Source of the DNA: Octopus vulgaris
Taxonomy: Eukaryota
Length of the DNA stretch: 64,000 nucleotides
Assembly: GCA_951406725.2 (NCBI GenBank)
Contig: OX597814.1
Coordinates: 93,930,001 to 93,994,000, forward strand
Direction: 5' to 3'
A program made the position numbers and the translations under genes. The notes under the pieces are model-generated. The model made no database searches, was not told the DNA's origin, and saw only the letters and a program-made list of their open reading frames with translations. Shown here in pieces: positions 2,030-54,199 of this stretch (position 1 is its first letter; each line of letters starts with the position of its first letter).

Positions 2030-2272
2030 CAGATATGACAGTTGGGACATGCAACTACAGACAAATACATAACAAAAGCCCCAGGACTAACAAATATATA
2101 TAACATACAGAAAATAGGACTACTAAATACTACACACATCCTACGTAAAACACTTTCAATACAATAACTATAAAAGCATGACAACAGACCACAGCACATA
2201 CCCAAGGCACACAGGACTGTGCTCGGTAGTACAGTGAAAGGACGTTATAAAAATAAGACTACTGAATAATGA
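2030..2272 (+). mobile_element. 3' end of an R4/Dong-like LINE
   Basis: Matches 49305-49510 (caggactaacaaatatatataacatacagaaaatag..cacacatcctacg.aaaa.actttcaata..cacagcacatacccaaggca); flanked by TAA/CAA repeats. Confidence 0.7.
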
Positions 2273-2289
2273 TAATAAAAAAAGATAGT

Positions 2290-3960
2290 TCAGGCAAAAC
2301 AAATTGTTTAAAGCAAATCAGAAGAAACTGTTTCAAGAACTAGATGGGCAAATACACGTGACAATGATACTAGATGCAGAGAAAGCAAGGCATTCTGGAG
2401 ATTTATCTGGAGCCAATCTGTAGAGCATAATGATGAAGCGGAGTGGTTGCATGAAATCCAAGATACGTTAAAAACTAGAGAAGTCCAAGAAGACATAAAT
2501 GTAACCACAAATTTGATAAAATAGCAGTTAAGAAAATTTCCAAATTGGAAGAACCCTGGATCGGATGGAGTCCAAAGTTATCGGATGAAGAAGCTAAGAG
2601 GGCTCCATGAAAGGATAGCACAAAAGCTAGAGGAGTGCTTGCAGGAAGATGCAGTACCAAGCTGCATGACAAAGGCAAAGACATTCTTATGTGCCGAGGA
2701 TCCTGAAAAGGGAAATGTTGCATCCAAATTTATATCAGGTGCTTAGGCTGGTGAACTGTATAAATACTTGGAAAAAGTGGGTTACTGCCCATTGAACAGA
2801 AAATATGCCGAAAAAGGAGCCGGGGGACGAAGGATCTAATTATCAGGAACTGCAAGGAAAGACATACAAACCTGAGCATGGCATGGGTTCACTATCGCAA
2901 AGCATACAATATGATACCATACTCCTGGATAATAAGAACAATGGAAATGTATGGAATAGCAGAGAATATGAGAAGCTTTATATGGAATAGCGTGAAATAC
3001 TGGAGAACGAAATTTACAGCAGAGAAGCAAGTACTAGAAGAGGTGAAAATCAAAAGAGGAATCTTCCAGGAAGACAGTGTGTACCCATTGATATTCATGC
3101 TGGGAATGATCCCCTTGAGTGAAATTCTACAGAAAAGGTAAGAGAACACTAAACCATTTGTTATTCTTGGATTACCTGAAGCGATTAAAAAAAACTGAGG
3201 CAGAACTGGAAAGTTTAGCCCAGTCTAAGAATTTTCTCCAATGATATTAAGATGGAGTTCGGATTCTCAAAATGTGCTACGGTGGGGATGAGACGAAGAA
3301 AGATTGCCAGGACAGAAGGCATATGGTTGCCAGGTGGTGAAATGATGAAGGCAATTCAACCTCAGTCCAGCTATAAATACCTGGGAATACTTGAGGCAGT
3401 TAGAATCAAAGAACACGACATAAAGGATAAGACAACAAGAGAGTACCTCCAGCGAGTGAGAAAAATATTGGCTTCAAAGCTGAATGCCAGAAACATAATC
3501 TCGGCAATGAACTCGTGCGCAGTCGCAGTAGTTCATTATGGCACTGGAATCTTGAATTGGACCGAGGAGAGGCTAAAGGAAATGGACAGGAAGTCAAGAA
3601 AGCTCCTAACGATGTATGGAGCCTATCATCCACGTGCAGACACTGATTGCCTATACATGTAGAGAGAAAATGGCGGAAAGGGACTAACAAGTGTGGAAGA
3701 ATGCGTGCGTATCGAACTTGAGAGATTAATGAGATACCTAGCTCAAAATAAAGAAACCTTGTTAGCGACAGATAGGAACGAGGGAGTAATTGAGAGCAGA
3801 GAAAAATGGAAAACAAAGGAAGAAGTACAAAATGGACCTGAAGATGAATTACGCAAGAAGGGACAACACTATCAATTCCAAGTAACCTCAACAGATGTTG
3901 CTTGAAATAATAGTGGGATTGACTGATAAAAGGACTATACTTGCAGCGCAGGATCAGAAA
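2290..3960 (+). mobile_element. Degenerate R4/Dong-like non-LTR retrotransposon RT region
   Basis: ORF pieces with [76 protein letters not shown]; many stops and frameshifts. Confidence 0.85.
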
Positions 3961-4438
3961 ATTAAGGAGCAGGAGCAGAAAATTAATGTGACTTTTCCAT
4001 TTATAAGAAATATCTATTCTAAGATGTGTAATTAAACAGTTGTGTAATATATTTGTTAAACAATAAAAAGTACTATTTGGTTTGTATTAGTTTCTTATTT
4101 CAGTATTGCATTTAATGACAAAATTGATATTTTTGGTAAAAAAAAAAAAAAGAATTCATGTTTAACAAAAAAATAGAAACTTTATAAGGGCATTTCTGAA
4201 CCCAGCCCCATCAATTTAGGTATGATTAATTGTAAGAAGCAGGACAACAATTTTATTTTCAAAAATGTTACCCAGTGTTATAAATCTACGTCAACGAGAA
4301 CATATATAATTGTATAATTATTTGTACTTTACACATACGCACACACACACACATACACACACGCACATGCAGATTCATATGTGTGTATACATGTATGTGT
4401 GTATTTCATATATATATATATATAAATATATATATATG

Positions 4439-4498
<60 letters not shown>

Positions 4499-4733
4499 TT
4501 ATAATAAGGGGCTAAAGAAGATATTTCTGAAGCCAATATACTGGTTATCCACTTATAATCCACTTGCTACAGGAAGAATTAAACTGAAAATCGGGCAACT
4601 AACCTTTAGAAAATTTAAATTTCTACGAGAGATTTAGAAATTCAATATTTCTTATTTTGATAATCAGTGAATAAACTTCACTGAATATAAATATATACAA
4701 TTACGAAGTCGAGGCAAATATCACCAGCCGACC

Positions 4734-6451
4734 TATTTTTTGGGGGGAGTCGTTATTCTGGTGTGTTGGTTTCGAGTGCGTCATTGTGAAGAGGTTGTGA
4801 GTTCGAGTTCGTTGCTGGAGGACGTGGTGAATTTTTTATTTACAGATTTTTGAAAATGCAAGACCAGACTTATGCGAGAGCAGCAGGCAGAGGCCTGGTT
4901 GCCAGTGAACTAGAAATGGAAGAAGTGGTAGTCGAGAAGAAGACTTTAGAAAAATATTTCGACAGTTTGAAGAGGGAGGGTGACTGCGTGAGAGTCACAC
5001 CGTCCGAAGAAGAAGAAAACAACGCGGAGAAACGTATGATAACATACAGGACATGGTGTGTGGCGACAAGAAAAATAGAAGTAGCAGAGACGGAAGAAAT
5101 AGAGAAATGTCTGAAAGGAATTGAGGGAGAACCCACCTTTTTCAACAGAGGAAGGAAATATGCCACAATGGTGGTACATTTTAAAAATGAAAATGAAGCA
5201 AGAAAGAATGCAACAAGAATTTTGAAAACGGAAAGTTGGACTTTATTACCGAGTTACTGTGGAAAGAGGGCAGTCAGAATAAGAATTAGTAGAATTTCGC
5301 CCGAACTTAACATGGAGAGGATATTAGCGGCAGTAGTTTTCAACTGCAAGGAAAGTGTGGAGGTGTTGAAGGTGGAGGTGTTGAAGGTGGAGAAGTCAAC
5401 AGAAGTTAAATGGTGGGGATATGCGGTGCAGTTTCTGGCACATATAACCGTGCCAGACCTGTACAACATCCCGGAGGAGTTGGTCTTCCCTGATGAGACA
5501 CGGCTTAGAGTCGTGGTAGAGGGAAGACCCCCAGTCTGTTATAATTGTAAATTAAGAGGCCACAGGAAGGATGTGTGCCCGCTGGAGAAAACGATAGCAC
5601 CGGAGGTTGTAACGAAGGAGTGTAAAGATACGTGTGTGGAGGAGGGAGAAGTGCAGGAGGAAACGAAAGCAGTGGAGGCGCAAACGGAGGAGCAGCTAAT
5701 TGAGGATGTGGAAGAAGAACGTGCAAGTGCAGAGGAGGAAAGAACAGAAGATAGGAAGAGAACAAGGGTGGAATCACCACCGAAAGTTCTAAAAAATAAA
5801 AAAATAAAAAGCAAGATAACAGAAGAAAAAGAAGAGAGAACGTGCAAAGAAACGGGAGTAAAAGAGAAGGCGAGAGAGCAGACAATGACAGAGGCTGACC
5901 AAGAATGGGAGACAAAAGTGAAAGAGCAGTTGGAAGCTTGTAAAAAGGGAAGAAGACCTGCAGGAAAAAACCTGAAAGCATTCGTGATGTATATCAAAGA
6001 CACAGAAGTAGAAAAAAGACTTGCAGGTAAGAAAGGATTGGTCAGGGTAAAGTTGCACCCAAAACTGTATGGTGACACTGTGAAAGGGGTAGTTATAGAA
6101 AAAGAGACATTCACAAAATTGAAGAAGATATTTAATGCTGTTTATGTAGCGCAATATGTACGATATGACAATTTGCCAAATGTAATAGACCAGATGGAAT
6201 TGATAAAGTATATGGCGGACGAACGTCCAATATAAAAGAACTGGAATATATGTAATGTTAAAATGTAAAATTGTAAATTGTAAAATTGTAAAATGTAAAA
6301 TTGTATTTTAAACGGAACTGCGAGTTGGGGGTTCTAACTCATTACACATAATTCATCTTTATTTCATATTTTATTTTTACTTTATGTACCCCACGTCCCG
6401 TCTTGTAATGTCCCGTCTGCATTCGGGCCATCGTGCCCATAATAAAGATAT
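4734..6451 (+). mobile_element. ORF1-only (HAL1-like, Tx1/L1-related) retroelement, copy 1
   Basis: 5' tattttttggggggagtcgttattc, single long ORF, 3' UTR ending aataaagatat; flanked by aatatcaccagccgacc (4717-4733) and aatatcaccaaccgacc (6452-6468). Confidence 0.75.
4856..6235 (+). CDS. Tx1/L1 ORF1-like nucleic-acid-binding protein with CCHC zinc knuckle (~459 aa, intact)
   Basis: ATG at 4856 (MQDQTYARAA); RRM-like segment (YATMVVHFKNENEA..VRIRISRISPEL); EGRPPVCYNCKLRGHRKDVC = CX2CX4HX4C; Glu/Lys-rich linker; basic C-terminal domain. Confidence 0.8.
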   Translation: MQDQTYARAAGRGLVASELEMEEVVVEKKTLEKYFDSLKREGDCVRVTPSEEEENNAEKRMITYRTWCVATRKIEVAETEEIEKCLKGIEGEPTFFNRGRKYATMVVHFKNENEARKNATRILKTESWTLLPSYCGKRAVRIRISRISPELNMERILAAVVFNCKESVEVLKVEVLKVEKSTEVKWWGYAVQFLAHITVPDLYNIPEELVFPDETRLRVVVEGRPPVCYNCKLRGHRKDVCPLEKTIAPEVVTKECKDTCVEEGEVQEETKAVEAQTEEQLIEDVEEERASAEEERTEDRKRTRVESPPKVLKNKKIKSKITEEKEERTCKETGVKEKAREQTMTEADQEWETKVKEQLEACKKGRRPAGKNLKAFVMYIKDTEVEKRLAGKKGLVRVKLHPKLYGDTVKGVVIEKETFTKLKKIFNAVYVAQYVRYDNLPNVIDQMELIKYMADERPI

Positions 6452-6468
6452 AATATCACCAACCGACC

Positions 6469-8182
6469 TATTTTTGGGGGGGAGTCGTTATTCTGGTGTG
6501 TTTGTTTTGAGTGCGTCATTGTGAAGAGGTTGTGAGTTCGAGTTCGTTGCTGGAGGACGTGGTGAATTTTATTTGGAGATTTTGAAAATGCAAGACCAGA
6601 CGTATGCGAGAGCAGCAGGCAGAGGCCTGGTTGCCAGTGAACTAGAAATGGAAGAAGTGGTAGTCGAGAAGAAGACTTTAGAAAAATATTTCGACAGTTT
6701 GAAGAGGGAGGGTGACTGCGTGAGAGTCACACCGTCCGAAGAAGAAGAAAACAACGCGGAGAAACGTATGATAACATACAGGACATGGTGTGTGGCGTCA
6801 AGAAAAATAGAAGTAGCAGAGACGGAAGAAATAGAGAAATGTCTGCAAGGAATTGAGGGTGAACCTACCTTTTTCAACAGAGGAAGGAAATATGCCACAG
6901 TGGTGGTACACTTTAAAAATGAAAATGAAGCAAGAAAGAATGCGACAAAAATTCTAAAATCTGAAAGTTGGACTTTATTACCGAGTTACTGCGGAAAGAG
7001 GGCAGTCAGAATAAGAATTAGTAGGATTTCGCCCGAACTTAACATGGAGAGGATATTAGCGGCAGTAGTTTTCAACTGCAAGGAAAGTGTGGAGGTGGTG
7101 AAGGTGGAAAAGTCAACAGAAGTTAAGTGGTGGGGATATGCGGTACAGGTTCTGGCACATATAACCGTGCCAGACCTGTACAACATCCCGGAGGAGTTGG
7201 TCTTCCCTGATGAGACACGGCTTAGAGTCGTGGTAGAGGGAAGACCCCCAGTCTGTTATAATTGTAAATTAAGAGGCCACATGAAGGATGTGTGCCCGCT
7301 GGAGAAAACGATAGCACCGGAGGCTGTAACGAAGGAGTGTAAAGATACGTGTGTGGAGGAGGGAGAAGTGCAGGAGGAAACGAAAGCAGTGGAGGCGCAA
7401 ACGGAGGAGCAGCTAATTGAGGATGTGGAAGAAGAACGTGCAAGTGCAGAGGATGAAAGAACAGAAGATAGGAAGAGAACAAGGGTGGAATCACCACCGA
7501 AAGTTCTAAAAAATAAAAAAATCAAAAGCAAGATAACAGAAGAAAAAGAAGAGAGAACGTGCAAAGAAAAGGACGAACAGACAAAGACAGAGGTAAACCT
7601 AGAATGGAGAAAAAACGTGAGAGAACAGTTGGATGCTTGTAAAAAGGGAAAAAGACCGGTAGGAAAATACCTGAAAGTATTCGTGTTGTACGTCAAAAAC
7701 ACAGATGTGGAAAAAAGACTTGCAGGTAGGAAAGGATTAATTAAGGTTAAATTACACCCAAAACTGCATGATGACGATGTGAAAGGGGTAGTTGTAGATA
7801 AGAGGAACATTTACTAAATTGAAAAGTATGTTTGATGAGGTTTATTTAACGTATTATGTATGTTATGACAATTTGCCAAATGTGATAGACCAGATGGAAT
7901 TAACAAAGTACATTACGGACGAACGTCCAATAGAACTGGAATATATGTAATTGTAAAATTGTAAAATGTAAAATTGTATTTTGAACTGGAATATATGAAA
8001 TTGTAAAATGTAAAATTGTATTTTAAACGGAACTGCGAGTTGGGGGCTCGTAAGCCGTTCCATCTAACTCATTACACAGAATTCATCTTTATTTCATATT
8101 TTATTTTTTACTTTATGTACCCCATGTCCCGTCTTGTAATGTCCCCTCTGCATTCGGGCCATCGTGCCCATAATAAAGATAT
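6469..8182 (+). mobile_element. ORF1-only retroelement, copy 2
   Basis: Same termini as copy 1; followed by aatatcaccagctgacc (8183-8199). Confidence 0.75.
6588..7950 (+). pseudogene. ORF1-like CCHC protein, copy 2, with +1 frameshift near 7805
   Basis: Open from ATG 6588 to stop 7817; the homologous tail (TFTKLKSMFDEVYLTYYVCYDNLPNVIDQMELTKYITDERPIELEYM) continues in another frame to TAA at 7948-7950. Confidence 0.75.
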
Positions 8183-8211
8183 AATATCACCAGCTGACCG
8201 GTTTCTGCTAC

Positions 8212-8257
8212 TCTAGGCCGATGAAGGACAACGATCCTGAAACACGGTGTCCCTAGA
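8212..8257 (+). ncRNA. Minimal type I hammerhead ribozyme motif (CCGAUGA core variant)
   Basis: tctagg CCGATGA agga-caacga-tcct GAA acac-g-gtgt C cctaga: stems I and II pair, stem III is palindromic, GUC cleavage triplet at 8249-8251. Confidence 0.8.
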
Positions 8258-8574
8258 TGCAGTTCCGGCAGCCGGGGGTGTTTGTCTCCCCTTCGTATAT
8301 GTATATAAGGACACAGGAAAAAATGTGTCAAAGCTATCAGGAGGCGTCGATGCCTCCTAGGGCTATACAGCGGTGGTGTACCCCCTACTGTCACGTTCTT
8401 GTTAGATTGACAGTATACAACCATTCTATCGCCCCACCACCGTACATGTCTCTACGAGAGATTTAGAAATTCAATATTTCTTATTTTGATAATTAGTGAA
8501 TAAACTTCACTGAATATAAATATATACAATTACGAAGTCGAGGCAAATATCACCAGCTGACCGGTGTCTGCTAC

Positions 8575-8620
8575 TCTAGGCCGATGAAGGACAACGATCC
8601 TGAAACACGGTGTCCCTAGA
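8575..8620 (+). ncRNA. Minimal type I hammerhead ribozyme motif, second tandem copy
   Basis: Identical to 8212-8257, 363 bp downstream. Confidence 0.8.
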
Positions 8621-8804
8621 TGCAGTTTCGGCAGCCGGGGGTGTTTGTCTCCCCTTCGTATATGTATATAAGGACACAGGGAAAAAATGTGTCAAAGCTA
8701 TCAGGAGGTGTTCGATGCCTCCTAGGGCTATACAGCGGTGGTGTACCCCCTACTGTCACGTTCTTGTTAGATTGACAGTATACAACCAATTTTAATTTCG
8801 TTAT

Positions 8805-8864
8805 CTCTATATTGAATCAATTTCGGAATAAATCCTATAAAGGATACATTCTTCGTCAGTAGAG
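8805..8864 (-). ncRNA. Minimal type I hammerhead motif of the host repeat
   Basis: Minus strand: ctcta CTGACGA agaat..atccttta/taggat..attcc GAA attga-t-tcaat A tagag. Confidence 0.75.
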
Positions 8865-9321
8865 CTTACGAGGGAATATAAATAAAATACTTACATGCGT
8901 TTATGGAAAAAGCAGAAGCTAAAAACATAACTACATTTAAGTACATCATTTATATCTAAAAATAAAAATTCCTTGGTCAGTCTCAGAAACAACCTGTTGA
9001 CTTTAGCCCTTTATTATAAGATGTTCATATTTCAACCGTAAAGTTTTTTTAATATACTGCCACACTTCCTGATGGAATTCTTTTCTGTACAGAAAGGGGC
9101 TTCATCCTATATTTGTTAGTAGTAAATCCATTACTGCTAGCTTACAGGGGAGTGGTAACCATTACAATATGTAGCGGCGAAAAGTCAACAGGTTGTTCTC
9201 AGACTGACCAAGGAATTTTTTTATTTTTAGATATAAATGATGTACTTAAATGTAGTTATGTTTTTAGCTTCTGCTTTTTCCATAAACGCATGTGAGTATT
9301 TTATTTATATTTCCTCGTAAG

Positions 9322-9381
9322 CTCTACTGACGAAGAATGTATCCTTTATAGGATTAATTCCAAAATTGATTCAATATAGAG
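9322..9381 (+). ncRNA. Hammerhead motif of the host repeat, probably inactive (GAAA reads AAAA)
   Basis: ctcta CTGACGA ... attcc AAAA ttgattcaat A tagag; inverted copy of 8805-8864. Confidence 0.6.
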
Positions 9382-9610
9382 ATAACGAAATTTAAATTTT
9401 CTAAAGGTTAGTTGCCCGATTTTCAGTTCAATTTTCCCTGTAACAGTGGATTATAAGTGGATAACCAGTATATTGGCTTCTGAAATAGCTTCTCTAGCCC
9501 TTTATTATAAGATGTTCATATTTCAACCGTAAAGGTTTTTTTAATATACTGCCACGCTTCCTGATGGAATTCTTTTCTGTAGAGAAAGGGGCATCATCCT
9601 ATATTTGTTA

Positions 9611-9654
<44 letters not shown>

Positions 9655-22060: not shown

Positions 22061-23563
22061 CTAGAGTATTTTTTTAGAAAAAATAATGAAAAATAGCTCA
22101 GAATTGCAGAGAAGACAGAATTTCTTGCCTTTGTCATATGGTATCGAAATTGAGAGGATCAACCATTCTAAATGAAATTGTTCATTGTGGTCTTTTAAAT
22201 CCCAAATCAGTTTGCTGAGACCGGTACTATTCCGTTTATTTCTATCCCTAAATGTTGAGTAATGGATAGAAATTCTTTTAGACAACTCTAACGATGTGCT
22301 TCCAATGTAAAATCGTACTTTATTACGAGTACTGATTATACACTGGTATATAGAATTTTTGATCTTAGAGTTACTTGACATAAACTTAATTCTATTGGAA
22401 TTGACTTCAGATACAATAACCTTGTTATTAATATTTCTGGAGGGTTGGATGGTATTAGCTAAATTAATGTTAGTATTAGTAAATGTATTAATATTTAACA
22501 GTTTGTTATTATGAGAAGATATAATTTGCAAGAGATATTTTGTGTTTGAAAAACCTATCCCAACCTTATGTGAATTGATTATAGAGTAATATCTAGAATT
22601 GTTTGGAAAATTCCTAGCAATAGCTTGACGAAACAGCAGTGGGAGATTAGATTTAATTTGTCTCCCGTAAGGAATTATTAACCAAATATTTTTACTAGTA
22701 TTCATAGCGTAATTACTTTTGAAGGTGTTACTTTTAGATCGATAATAGGGGATTAAATAAGGGTTATCTGCCTTCATTTGCTTTGTATCGGTGCGTAAGT
22801 TATGTTTGTTATCAATAATTCTTTTGCGACTAGAAATCTTATCTACATTATTGAATTTACAATTAGACTGAGCAAAATCAATGTAGAAAATTTTTTCTGT
22901 ATAACCTGCTTTGATTAAGGCAGAGTTATAGAATTCAGCGTTATTATTGAAAATATCAACATTAGCAGGTAATTTAGATAATCTAAATGAAATATTCTTA
23001 ACTAAGTTCTTAGTAATTCCTCCAGGATGATTACTAAATTTGCTAATGTACTTAAGATTGGTCAACGGTTTATGATATGGGAAGTAAGAGTCACTGTGTA
23101 AATTAAGCGTAATATCTAAAAAGTTGGCCTTCGTCAGATCGTCATCAAAAACGATTTTTAAGCCCATTCTACTGAAAAAATTAACTAAACTATTCTTAAC
23201 ATTTTGTACCTTTTGGTTGGAAACATTTTGGAGGTAAAGTAAACAATCATCACGATATAGACCTCCATAAATGTTAGGGAACTCTTCAGCCATTTCAAAA
23301 AGAATATATATACAGACCAAATCTGCTATCTGTGCTGAATCAGAACTTCCCATTGGTATATCGAAACTATCTGGTGTGTCTTTACGGACCCACAACTTAT
23401 CATCAAATTTAATAATAGATCTTCTGGCTGCCAACACAACATTAATTTCTTCTCTGGTGAGACCAGCTTTGTTATGAGCAAGCCAACGTGCCCTATTAAG
23501 TACTATTGGATTAATAGATGAATAAAAATTGGAAATATCAAACTGGATAAACTTAGTACTCAC
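22061..23563 (-). CDS. Penelope RT + GIY-YIG endonuclease (500-aa open segment; upstream part disrupted)
   Basis: FIQFDISNFYSSI, FDIPMGSSDSAQIADLV, GLYRDDCL, ANFLDITLNL, YISKFSNHP, NSIYQCII..FYIGST..KRISIHYSTF, CLLCNSE. Confidence 0.9.
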   Translation of the reverse strand: MSTKFIQFDISNFYSSINPIVLNRARWLAHNKAGLTREEINVVLAARRSIIKFDDKLWVRKDTPDSFDIPMGSSDSAQIADLVCIYILFEMAEEFPNIYGGLYRDDCLLYLQNVSNQKVQNVKNSLVNFFSRMGLKIVFDDDLTKANFLDITLNLHSDSYFPYHKPLTNLKYISKFSNHPGGITKNLVKNISFRLSKLPANVDIFNNNAEFYNSALIKAGYTEKIFYIDFAQSNCKFNNVDKISSRKRIIDNKHNLRTDTKQMKADNPYLIPYYRSKSNTFKSNYAMNTSKNIWLIIPYGRQIKSNLPLLFRQAIARNFPNNSRYYSIINSHKVGIGFSNTKYLLQIISSHNNKLLNINTFTNTNINLANTIQPSRNINNKVIVSEVNSNRIKFMSSNSKIKNSIYQCIISTRNKVRFYIGSTSLELSKRISIHYSTFRDRNKRNSTGLSKLIWDLKDHNEQFHLEWLILSISIPYDKGKKFCLLCNSELFFIIFSKKIL

Positions 23564-50159: not shown

Positions 50160-53100
50160 CAAAAAAAAAATACAGACGAATGCAGATCTGCTAGCCTTAA
50201 GAAACAGCGCTACTAACAATGTTTACATGCAGAGAATCCTAAACTGACAGATCAGTCTCTTAATGTAAGAGTCGAAGCTCGTCATGCTTCAATGTCAACA
50301 AAACAAATTACAAACCGCAATGGTCATCGAGCGGATTACAAAAGACCACGTACCCGAAAATTGAACCAAATTCTGATTGAAAAATCAGCTACTGGATCAA
50401 ATCTTCCCGACACACAGGAGCTGGATGTATCCCACAACCGGAATATTCCAACAGATGGCCATCAATGCCCGTCACTAAATAATCAAAAGAAAAAGAAGGA
50501 AAAATGGTCTAGGGAAGATAATAAAGAAGTTCTTGCGGCCTTCTACCATGCCATATATTTCCCCACAGATAAATCTAACACTGTACAAACATACTTAAAC
50601 TGGAGACAGAAACACCCTGAAGCAAGGCCCTACATAGACAGTAACAAACTTGCCAACGTCAGAAGAAATATTATAAAAAAAAAAAATTACTGACTGAAGT
50701 AGAGATTGATCAAATTAGACAAGCAGTAACAGATAAAATGAACGAAGCTGCAGCTAAAGAAGATAATACAGAGGAAATAATAATTATAGACCAGTCAGGG
50801 CTGATAAAAACGAAGTAAGGATTGAAATAGTTAGTATAAGTGATAGGCAAAGTGAAATACTCCCTGAACCAATCATAAACACTAAGACAGATGAACATCA
50901 AATAGATGAAGTCACACAAATATTGACCCAACATAGCTACATAAGCTAAAATATCAAATCATGATTGAATGGCTGAGAATTAAAGAAACCAGTATGGATG
51001 AACGCGATACACTCCCTAAAATTCGCAAATCTAACCAAAACATGAAAGTAATTGGTAAAATCCGGCTTGCACTTAAGGATATAATTTCAGCTAATGATGT
51101 TGATATCATAGACCTCAACCACCTGTACTATGCATCCGTGAAAATCTCAACGATCCTATGTTGTGAAAAGATTAGAAAACGGCAACATTCCCGCAAAAAG
51201 CCTTCTTGGCAAGAGCGTATACAACAACAAATTAAACTATTTAGATCTGACATTGAATATTTGAAAAACCTTAAGGTTGACAAGACTACCAAACCTACAA
51301 AAACCCCCAAATTAATGAAAAAATATAATATGAAAACTATACTTGATATTGATGCTACCATAGAAACCATCAAGCAAAAGGTATCTGCTAAAGCTGCCCG
51401 CATAGCGAGGTATGAAAAGCGTGTTAGATTCTTCAAGGACAACATGTTCAAAAATAACCCCAAAAGGTTTTACAGGAAGATAGGAAAAACACCAGTTACT
51501 GTAAAGTCTGTACCATCTAAAGGAGAAGTGCAGGGATTTTGGAATAAAATTTGGGCAGAAGAAAAAACACACAACGAAAAGGCCCCCTGGATTGATAGAA
51601 TATCTACAGAACTGGACTCCTTAGAAGAGCAAAAGTGGGAGGGTGTCAAGGTAGAAGATATAAGATCTGCTATCAAGAGGTCAAGCAAATGGAAGTCTCC
51701 AGGAAAGGATAAAATTCCTAACTTCTGGTTGAATGCCTTCCCAGATAGCCATGAACTGCTAACAGAACTTTACAACCATGTTTTGCAACACCCTAATAGG
51801 ATGCCTCCTTGGCTAGTTAATGGGTTAACATTCCTGCTTCCAAAAAGTGAAGAAACAAATGAATCAAAAAACTATAGACCCATAACCTGCTTAACAACTA
51901 TGTATACTAACATCTGTCCTGACGGAATACACCTATAGTTTTTTAACAGACAACAGCATATTACCTAATGAACAGAAAGGATGTAAACGTGGATCCTGTG
52001 GTTGTAAAGATCAACTACTCATCAATAAGATGATCTTAGAAGATTGTCACAAACGACACAAAAACTTATCAATAGCTTGATAAAAAGGCTTTTGATAGCC
52101 TACCACATAGCTGGATTAAGAAATGCCTGGAAATGTATAAAATAGCACCTACTCTGCGAAACTTTTTGTCTGTAAGTATGAGATCATGGAGAACCACATT
52201 AACTTTGAACAGTGACAATGAATCTCTAAATGCTGGTGATGTAAAAATTTCATGTGGCATATTCAAGCGTGACTCACTATCACCACTCCTCTTTTGTTTA
52301 GCCTTAATACCTCTCTCAAAATTGCTCAATGACGTGCAGTACGGATATAAAATGTTTGATAAAATTATAAATCATCTCATTTACATGGATGATTTAAAGC
52401 TTTTTGCAAAAAATGACCAACAACTCAAGGGCTTACTAGCGATTGTTAAACAATTCAGTGATGACGTCAGAATGCAATTTGGCCTCGATAAATGTGCAAA
52501 AGCTACCTTTATCAAAGGAAAAATGACAGAGGCATCTAACGTTAACCGTGACCAGCAGAATGTCATAAAAGAATTAGACCCAGCGGAGAGCTACAAGTAT
52601 CTAGGGATAATTGAAGGGGCCGGAATAAGGCATTCAGTGATGAAGGAAAGGATCAGGAAAGAATCTTATCGCAGAGTAAGAGCAATACTCAAGACAGAGC
52701 TGAAAGCAAGAAACAGGATCGAAGCGATCAATGCTTTAGCCATACCAGTCGTGACTTATAGTTTCAATATCGTTAACTGGTCAATTACTGAAATATGTAA
52801 TCTTGACAGAAAAATACGAAAACTGTTGTCAATGCATAGAATGCACCACCCTAAAGTAGATACAGAACGACTTTATCTGCCAAGAAAAGATGGAGGCCGT
52901 GGACTTTTACAACTGGCAATAACAATGAAGATTGCTACAATTGGCATAGACACCTACCTGCAAAACTCTGAGGACTGGATGTTAAAACTTGTCTCAAAAC
53001 ATGAAAACAGTAACAAAACAAGCAAAGGAATATCTAAGTGAATTCCGAATACAACAAATTTCGGAATTAGACATACAAGAAACAAGCACAGAAAAAGCTA

Positions 53101-54090
53101 AGCACATAAAAACTCGTGCTAAAACTGCGGCCTTAGATATTTTGAATGATAAATGGCAAGAAAAACCTTTCTATGGCAAATACCCAAAGAGAGTGAATAA
53201 TGCAGATGTTGACAAAGCCCTGACCCATCAATGGCTAATGGCCTCTGGCTTAAAATCTGAAACAGAAGGGTTTATCATAGCAGCTCAAGATCAATGCCTA
53301 CCAACATATTAAAGAACGGCAGTAGCCCAACATGTCGTGTATGTCAACAACAAAATGAAACACCATTGATCATGTTGTCTCCAAGTGCAGTCTTCTAGCG
53401 CCTACAGAGTATCTCAACAGGCATGATAGAGCTGCAGAATATATTCACTGGGTAATTTTCAAAAACCCGGATTTGCCCCATGAAAAAAACTGGTGGGAAC
53501 ACAAACCACCTCCAGTGCTTGAAAATGACCACATCTCACTCCTCTGGAACTTCACCATTCAAACTGACAGAAAGATAGATGCAAATAGGCCAGACATCAT
53601 ATTGAAAGACTTCAGACAAAAAAGATGCCTCCTCATTGATATGACTGTCCCAATCGATATAAACGTATCTGTCAAGATCTACCAAAAACTGAGCAAATAT
53701 AAAGATCTTGAAATAGAAATCAGCAAAATGTGGAAGCTGAAGACTAAAACAATACCTGTTGTCATAGGGGCCCTGGGAATGATAGCAAAAGGGGCTGATT
53801 GCTACCTAACTCAGATACCAGGAAACCCCAAAATGGCAGAAATTCAAAAGATAGTGCTCATGGGAACTACTCATATCCTACGCAAAATACTTTCTATGTA
53901 ATCCCAAGGTTAAAAACAAACGTAATTTGCGTTTTTTTTAGACATTCACTAGTACAACACCAAAAAAACCCCCAAATATATGGCACACTAGGCATCACAA
54001 CAACATGAACTTCCAACCTGTTGTCTCTTGAGGTCTCTGGGTGAGACTTGGAGCCAACTTGTACAAATATAAAGCAAAAGTCAAACATAG
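50160..54090 (+). mobile_element. Near full-length R4/Dong-like LINE (RT + zinc knuckle + restriction-like endonuclease), frameshifted
   Basis: ORF pieces 50292-53901: KWSREDN, WKSPGKDKI, NYRPITCL, GIFKRDSLSPLLF, HLIYMDDLKLF, SETEGFIIAAQDQ, ANRPDIIL, KLSKYKDLEIE; bounded by TAA repeats on both sides. Confidence 0.92.
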
Positions 54091-54199
54091 AATAATAATA
54101 ATAATAATAATGATAATAATAATTTTCACCTCGCAATAACCACGCCTCGGATAACCCTCACTGGCCATGGCACCGACAAGTCATCCGGATTATTATTAA

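Follow-up and report, generated by a model that had tools for sequence, protein, structure and literature searches.

Two ORF1-only units in a hammerhead-bearing repeat

The 64 000-nucleotide stretch of Octopus vulgaris DNA analysed here (the window; contig OX597814.1, positions 93 930 001 to 93 994 000) carries, close to its left end, two head-to-tail retroelement units inserted in a short repeat with a hammerhead ribozyme (a retrozyme). Each unit encodes only a protein of the type found in the first open reading frame (ORF1) of long interspersed nuclear elements (LINEs). An earlier reading of the letters alone (the original prediction) had placed two ~1.7-kb units, both ending in aataaagatat and devoid of reverse transcriptase (RT) and endonuclease, between three copies of a target sequence 5' of the hammerhead. 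This arrangement holds, with the target copies at exactly 4717, 6452 and 8183. The locus consists of the following features.

4488..4623, +, left part of a further dispersed repeat (~0.5 kb), entered by the retrozyme array (joint 4617-8794)
4622..4716, +, 5' part of the host retrozyme monomer, 98% identical to 8451-8562
4686 and 4692, +, TATA-like boxes (predicted promoter, from motif positions and positional enrichment), 31 and 25 nt before the duplication
4717..4733, +, upstream target copy: ~12 bp of true duplication plus an element-borne 5' tag ending in cgacc
4734..6451, +, unit 1, ORF1-only retroelement of family A, promoter-proximal
4856..6235, +, ORF1 of unit 1 (459 amino acids, aa), with an RRM-like domain pair, a CCHC knuckle, an acidic linker and a C-terminal domain
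6404..6451, +, 3' end motif of unit 1: TGTAATGTCCC, 4-bp hairpin, AATAAA, gatat
6452..6468, +, middle target copy, between the units
6469..8182, +, unit 2, ORF1-only retroelement; ORF 6588-7817 frameshifted (409 aa)
8183..8545, +, rest of the 363-bp retrozyme monomer; its first 17 bp (8183-8199) are the downstream target copy
8212..8257, +, hammerhead of type I with the CCGAUGA core variant and a palindromic stem III; cleavage predicted after 8251
8546..8788, +, part of a second monomer, which holds the empty target (8546-8562) and another hammerhead (core at 8581)

The 17-bp target copies that bracket both units are exact, with 0 expected by chance, and the uninterrupted target that had been proposed for the next monomer is an exact copy of the same 17-mer. 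Repeated insertion at one site, also part of the original prediction, is supported. The two units are 94.7% identical (ungapped columns), near-identical in the 5' part and more divergent in the 3' halves. The ~460-aa ORF ascribed to both is found in unit 1 but is broken by the frameshift in unit 2.

The hammerhead and its host repeat

The hammerhead is of type I, with a 6-bp stem I, a 4-bp stem II, a short palindromic stem III and a GUC that ends at 8251, as originally proposed. The Rfam gathering search reports a hammerhead neither in the window nor at 18 further loci, so the assignment is made from pattern and covariation; single-sequence folding of the window copy is weak (z −2.5 and −1.4). 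In the alignment of 12 target families, 94% of the cells are paired and 8 of the 12 pairs include double changes, with none of 500 shuffles scoring as high and all slid controls lower. The window hammerhead is, by these measures, a real motif that is predicted to cleave itself. Divergent core variants (CCGAUGA, UUGAYRA, CUGACGA) escape Rfam, and at least five divergent hammerhead retrozyme families lie 3' of units at loci L038, L050, L053, L082, L084 and L160.

The 363-bp monomer is found dispersed, and its partial copies lie in tandem or inverted (best 40 of 2045 candidates scored). The accessible parts of the literature on retrozymes and Penelope pseudo-long terminal repeats (pLTRs) describe short tandem monomers, type I hammerheads, a palindromic helix III, tandem and inverted partial copies, and inverted 5'-truncated copies (PMC7229834, PMC4209133, PMC8557442, bioRxiv 10.64898/2026.07.22.740005). 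The host repeat has this layout of a non-LTR retrozyme (LTR, long terminal repeat), as judged from its short non-coding tandem monomer, type I hammerhead and Penelope-type insertion structure. It differs from the published retrozymes in its putative TATA promoter, which the accessible text of PMC7229834 and of bioRxiv 10.64898/2026.07.22.740005 does not mention, and in its Tx1 insertions, which that of the latter does not mention either. In one DNA run, the contig depth summed over the retrozyme is ~100-fold higher than that over the unit, a ratio that is not a copy number.

A palindrome (CAGTGAA..TTCACTG, 4665-4683) lies directly 5' of the TATA-like box, and similar elements occur in other retrozyme families. 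The ~0.5-kb repeat that surrounds the retrozyme array continues on the right at 8788-9121, with a 12-bp near-duplicate at 4612 and 8788. The repeat itself (4488-4623, 8788-9613) has tandem and inverted copies in a Penelope-like layout, and a pattern search of it found no hammerhead.

An old ORF1-only family with selected coding capacity

In the genome searched (2.8 Gb, 227 contigs), the unit has at least 59 DNA matches (best 39 of 224 candidates scored) and ORF1 at least 150 protein matches (best 149 of 12890 candidates scored). A word-based protein search with ORF1 retrieved nothing, and a profile search retrieved many unnamed relatives. The predicted ORF1 fold consists of two RRM-like domains and a CCHC knuckle (pLDDT 81); the model matches tandem RRM-like folds with modest scores (VIA Z up to 8.5) and resembles clusters of the ZCCHC3 RNA-binding domain (RBD; score 0.90). 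The accessible text of PMC5203782 links an RRM plus CCHC (type I) ORF1 to the Tx1 clade.

An endonuclease 3' of the element was found, among the loci collected, in none of the 106 family A copies, nor in families B (0/33), C (0/19) and E (0/4), compared with 5/5 in D and 3/5 in G; it was also absent behind 30 further A-like relatives. The original prediction of an ORF1-only element of L1/Tx1 type that codes for protein but is not autonomous is supported. It had also named continuation of most other copies into an ORF2 as an observation that would speak against it; among these A and A-like loci, a single basal relative, L219, keeps part of an ORF2. Its stretch 2205-4700 is a bipartite intermediate, with an A-like ORF1 fused to the 3' third of an ORF2.

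Family A forms a separate clade in the ORF1 tree. The ratio of non-synonymous to synonymous substitution rates (dN/dS) over the N-terminal 245 codons is 0.07-0.23 in unedited pairs, with two pairs saturated. At the level of sequence, this selection shows that the ORF1 protein (ORF1p) is needed by the ORF1-only element itself. Copies of the family end in AATAAA and are flanked by target duplications of 13-22 bp. On these features, family A appears as an old, dispersed, selected and non-autonomous ORF1-only LINE family of L1/Tx1 type. It resembles HAL1, a non-autonomous L1 derivative that encodes only ORF1p and arose several times (PMC5753468, accessible text): it too codes for ORF1 alone, forms a selected lineage of its own, and has a LINE-type end and duplication. 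Unlike in HAL1 as described there, its ORF1 is of the RRM and CCHC type, and the elements are position-targeted and found in mixed arrays. An error of assembly, or the simple deletion of part of a LINE, might be invoked, as the tandem is known from assembled sequence and L219 keeps remnants of ORF2. The two window units, however, differ by 5% and have distinct 3' halves, 30 multi-element arrays were seen, and family A is an old clade that stayed under selection without ORF2, so this explanation is barely credible.

Six of the 173 compared elements carry an excess of A-to-G changes on the sense strand, which is extreme in three of them (164/171, 161/166 and 129/171 differences). In the one edited copy tested, the flanks are unedited, which implies that the hyper-edited copies were inserted as RNA on their own. 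The excess is likely to reflect ADAR-type editing of an RNA stage, given the established chemistry; such genomic copies would be a direct record of that stage. The hyper-edited copies are the L071 unit and the first units of L039 and L038, some with ORF1 still open.

Autonomous partners

Two family A copies are directly preceded on the 5' side by an ORF2 end that has the same tail (TGTAATGTCCC, hairpin, AATAAA) and the same duplication, and copies with both ORF1 and ORF2 occur in the same arrays as the ORF1-only units. The partner ORF2 has the Pfam domains APE, RT and zf-RVT, and among solved structures it is closest to L1 ORF2p (PDB E-value 6e-65, compared with 5e-26 for R2). These features, with the C-terminal zinc motif, place the partner in the L1/Tx1 superfamily. 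In the RT tree, it falls with moderate support into a broad group with fish proteins that bear ZCCHC3-type RBDs, with no named Tx1 reference among the homologs; membership in the Tx1 clade is likely on the evidence of the ORF1 type, not of the tree. Five autonomous copies have open ORF2 frames of 1132-1148 aa and are material for studies of site-directed insertion.

The autonomous family G is inserted at this same place in several hammerhead families, that of the window among them (where the copy, L010/L031, is broken), and its arrays have a period of 5.28 kb. Such head-to-tail autonomous arrays comprise six copies at C5:29.179-29.206 Mb and at least nine at C9:59.204-59.247 Mb (L152-L155). 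The original expectation of an autonomous partner with a common 3' end proved right for the overall tail, which is similar in ORF1-only and autonomous families, but not for the exact GGGCC..GTGCC hairpin end of the window subfamily, found in no autonomous element among 62 3' ends. Autonomous copies also target satellite-like monomers arranged in tandem, which contain TATAAAA and a (CT)n tract (L156/L316, L161/L319, L159).

Target choice: probably position rather than sequence

Of the 22 loci closest to the window's units, 17 lie in the window's retrozyme and 2 in different hammerhead families; the remaining 3 are in repeats that lack a ribozyme. A flank-blind search with the 3' end gave 62 places in this subclade, 47 of them linked to retrozymes of several families and 15 not (classed by eye). 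Hammerhead repeats are the main host of this subclade, in line with the original prediction, but specificity for the hammerhead or for one sequence is not supported: the duplications have no common sequence, and the elements also enter an LTR and other ribozyme-free targets.

Automatic calling found a duplication at 59 of the 86 promoter-proximal junctions, and these were grouped into 18 target clusters. The duplicated sequences have no consensus across the clusters. What recurs is a TATAWA motif starting 25-36 nt 5' of the duplication, in 9.3 of the 18 clusters, compared with a background of 4.5% and with 0-2.2 clusters in each of 24 other 12-nt bins (binomial probability ~3e-8, for clusters that are not fully independent). 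The count rises to 11.0 with TAAATA, a variant included once the data had been inspected.

A similar distance is seen in most of the dissimilar hosts. Elements 98-99% identical to each other were found in three unrelated targets (a solo LTR and two other repeats), and elements 95-97% identical likewise in three targets. The solo LTR (~1.15 kb, with CCAAT, TATAAAA and 4-bp duplications) has the insertion 28-32 nt behind its TATA, and a short host repeat that we take to be Helitron-like has TATAAAG ~30 nt upstream. Single full-length copies at L059, L067, L109, L152, L156 and L159 lie in unrelated targets with a TATA at this distance. Targeting of one conserved sequence per family does not fit, because nearly identical elements have unrelated duplications; the pattern is that of a fixed distance to a putative promoter element, as in TRE5-A and Ty3, with exceptions. 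A candidate for a unique promoter target, L023, was rejected when it turned out to be an old repeat.

The usual spacing between TATA and the transcription start is ~30 nt, which would put the start at, or slightly within, the upstream duplication; in the window, it is predicted inside 4717..4733. The statistics establish a position behind TATA-like boxes; promoter function, tethering and mobilisation in trans are inferred. The interpretation that we favour, with somewhat better than even confidence, is that these are promoter-less ORF1-only LINE derivatives positioned at RNA polymerase II (Pol II) start sites and that the host repeat's promoter drives their transcription. The host promoter would start the RNA inside the upstream duplication, giving it a short 5' target tag, and the RNA would end at the element's AATAAA. 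ORF2p would be supplied in trans by the autonomous families with the same 3' motif and would nick near the start site, yielding the 13-22 bp duplication. Repeated insertion builds the head-to-tail arrays observed, in which ORF1-only and autonomous copies are mixed. Tethering could involve promoter-bound factors or the open promoter, possibly through ORF1p as reported for TRE5-A. Retrozymes would be the commonest host as abundant TATA-bearing repeats.

A parasite specific for the sequence or structure of hammerhead repeats, using the ribozyme for processing, was the central idea of the original prediction. Retrozyme linkage of 47 of the 62 subclade 3' ends and of 19 of the 22 closest loci agrees with it, as does the pairing of the target into an extended stem I in the fold. 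Yet target sequences differ between retrozyme families, sister copies lie in the LTR and other ribozyme-free targets, and at all targets the copies end at their own AATAAA motif, so that ribozyme cleavage is not needed for 3' processing. Such a parasite is improbable; the link to the ribozyme is true as a host preference and likely not the targeting rule.

5' tags, truncated copies and possible homing

At the window's target, 9 of 10 5' junctions read cgacc, compared with 16 of the 100 listed empty targets (130 in all; Fisher p 4e-6). The cgacc junction contrasted with tgacc in the original prediction is thus general, the true duplication is ~12 bp, and the suspicion that the element's 5' end mimics its target is substantiated by this target-derived C. 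Target sequence is thus part of the element's 5' end, which an RNA start in the duplication would lead one to expect.

This real tag also suits a different reading, in which copies are guided back to their repeat family by target sequence on the RNA ends, either the 5' tag or a 3' read-through into the duplication that the hammerhead may trim. Lineages would then be transcribed and spread only if they had landed behind a promoter, and no promoter-sensing protein would be needed. At retrozyme sites, 37 of 47 copies are full-length, compared with 3 of 15 at other sites (classed by eye, one ambiguous; p 7e-5), truncated copies sit at TATA-less sites, and read-through RNAs must exist because composites of retrozyme and unit were copied. 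Homing combined with survival is nevertheless unlikely: the single full-length copies in unrelated targets have their TATA at this distance too, a finding for which the survival of offspring does not account, and near-identical elements change targets.

Positioning by the promoter has its own difficulties. The 27 of 86 junctions without an automatic duplication were left out of the TATA count, and ~7 of the 18 clusters (for example the L164 group, L090, L154 and L162) lack even a TATA-like match at the given distance. The boxes are sequence matches whose promoter function is predicted. The large Helitron-like host group, which the duplication filter dropped, also has junctions at −3, +11 and +38 relative to TATA. 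The retrozyme families are homologous, and the conserved position of the insert may be inherited. All characterisable targets are repeats, and no host gene promoter has been shown to be one. A systematic search for tags from other targets gave 3 of 59, compared with 7 in the reversed control, L027 (12 nt) being the only clear case. 5'-truncated copies with clean 15-19 bp duplications have a TATA at 0 of 4 sites; together with the full-length bias, they are unexplained by pure promoter tethering and favour a role of 5' homology in completing insertions. Array age polarity (17/26, p 0.08) is not significant.

Arrays and composites

In the 30 multi-element arrays, autonomous family D is usually distal and family A proximal, and different families are stacked at one site, each with its own duplication. 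Arrays of 8-12 ORF1-only and autonomous units occupy the short Helitron-like repeat at C1:142.94-142.96, C4:70.03-70.05 and C14:37.73-37.75 Mb. Three arrays in this repeat have a C-E-D suffix in common, at ~99% identity.

A few chance insertions might have been multiplied as cargo by the Penelope machinery or the host repeats. Besides the C-E-D suffix, such copying is suggested by inverted or 5'-truncated composites of Penelope type: at L120, which stops in TA repeats at the usual retrozyme 3' end, an inverted retrozyme piece is joined inside the unit, and L016, L083/L290 and L215/L297, possibly also L275 and L282, are similar. At this minority of loci, the composite of retrozyme and unit was thus also copied in Penelope fashion, and the cargo idea raised originally applies there. 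As the sole explanation, it is very improbable in view of the different subfamilies and autonomous copies stacked at one site and of the unedited flanks of hyper-edited copies. The distances among units show no clear congruence with those among flanks (Mantel r 0.25, p 0.10, 14 loci); this weak relation and the separate duplications of the stacked families indicate that cargo transport is not the main route.

Comparison with known systems

The targeting of APE-type LINEs is usually ascribed to the sequence preference of the endonuclease. In the accessible text of PMC4494074, Tx1L, Keno, Tx1-Mar and SINEU-3 are inserted in multicopy genes or in transposons of other kinds, LTR elements among them; the target-specific Tx1 LINEs (APE-RT) and SINEU-3 have tandem copies that sandwich a duplication, and transcription from flanking sequence is proposed. 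Stacking inside other transposons is common to these elements and those described here. The Tx1 targets are described there as sequence-defined, one per family, whereas here near-identical elements enter unrelated sequences with a fixed spacing to TATA. The partner that is not autonomous, unlike SINEU-3, encodes a protein.

Positional targeting is shared with TRE5-A and Ty3, which integrate near promoters in a position-specific, not sequence-specific, manner; TRE5-A is an APE-RT LINE, the ORF1p of which binds TFIIIB subunits in vitro (PMC5006619, accessible text). These elements insert upstream of Pol III genes, which are also the subject of the position-specific cases found in print as far as accessible; here, the targets are putative Pol II TATA promoters. 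Insertion at or just after the predicted start would, unlike that of TRE5-A and Ty3, capture the promoter.

The form of the arrays is that of HeT-A and TART. HeT-A is a gag-only element. With TART, it makes up mixed head-to-tail arrays, with transcription from upstream sequence and an RT proposed to come from the partner (PMC1636488, accessible text). Those arrays are telomeric and jockey-like; the octopus arrays are internal, with duplications, and would depend on foreign promoters.

A recent annotation of octopus repeats contains 13 L1-Tx1 families with recent activity, in its accessible part without target analysis (PMC13282606), and the window's families may already be catalogued among them. 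The literature covered, with subscription papers, Repbase reports and supplements outside its scope, contains in its accessible parts no account of TATA-positioned LINEs or of LINEs in retrozymes. We give about even chances to the broader proposition that an animal LINE clade finds Pol II core promoters by position, enters at the start site and so steals those of retrozymes, LTRs and Helitron-like repeats, and has spawned several long-lived ORF1-only lineages with an ORF1p tether and HeT-A/TART-like internal arrays. A LINE clade at Pol II TATA start sites would, if true, represent a new targeting rule; it would explain why ORF1 is kept under selection in ORF1-only elements and make tethering by ORF1p testable. 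The insertions also mark a probable promoter in animal retrozymes, which can carry protein-coding cargo.

Other features of the window

Elsewhere in the window, positions 54057-54190 (−) give a partial match to U4 small nuclear RNA just over the Rfam threshold, with a degenerate 3' part, probably a pseudogene. Positions 22061-23353 (−) hold a 430-aa ORF without a Pfam match, and 50961-53041 (+) a broken LINE region that bears an RT.

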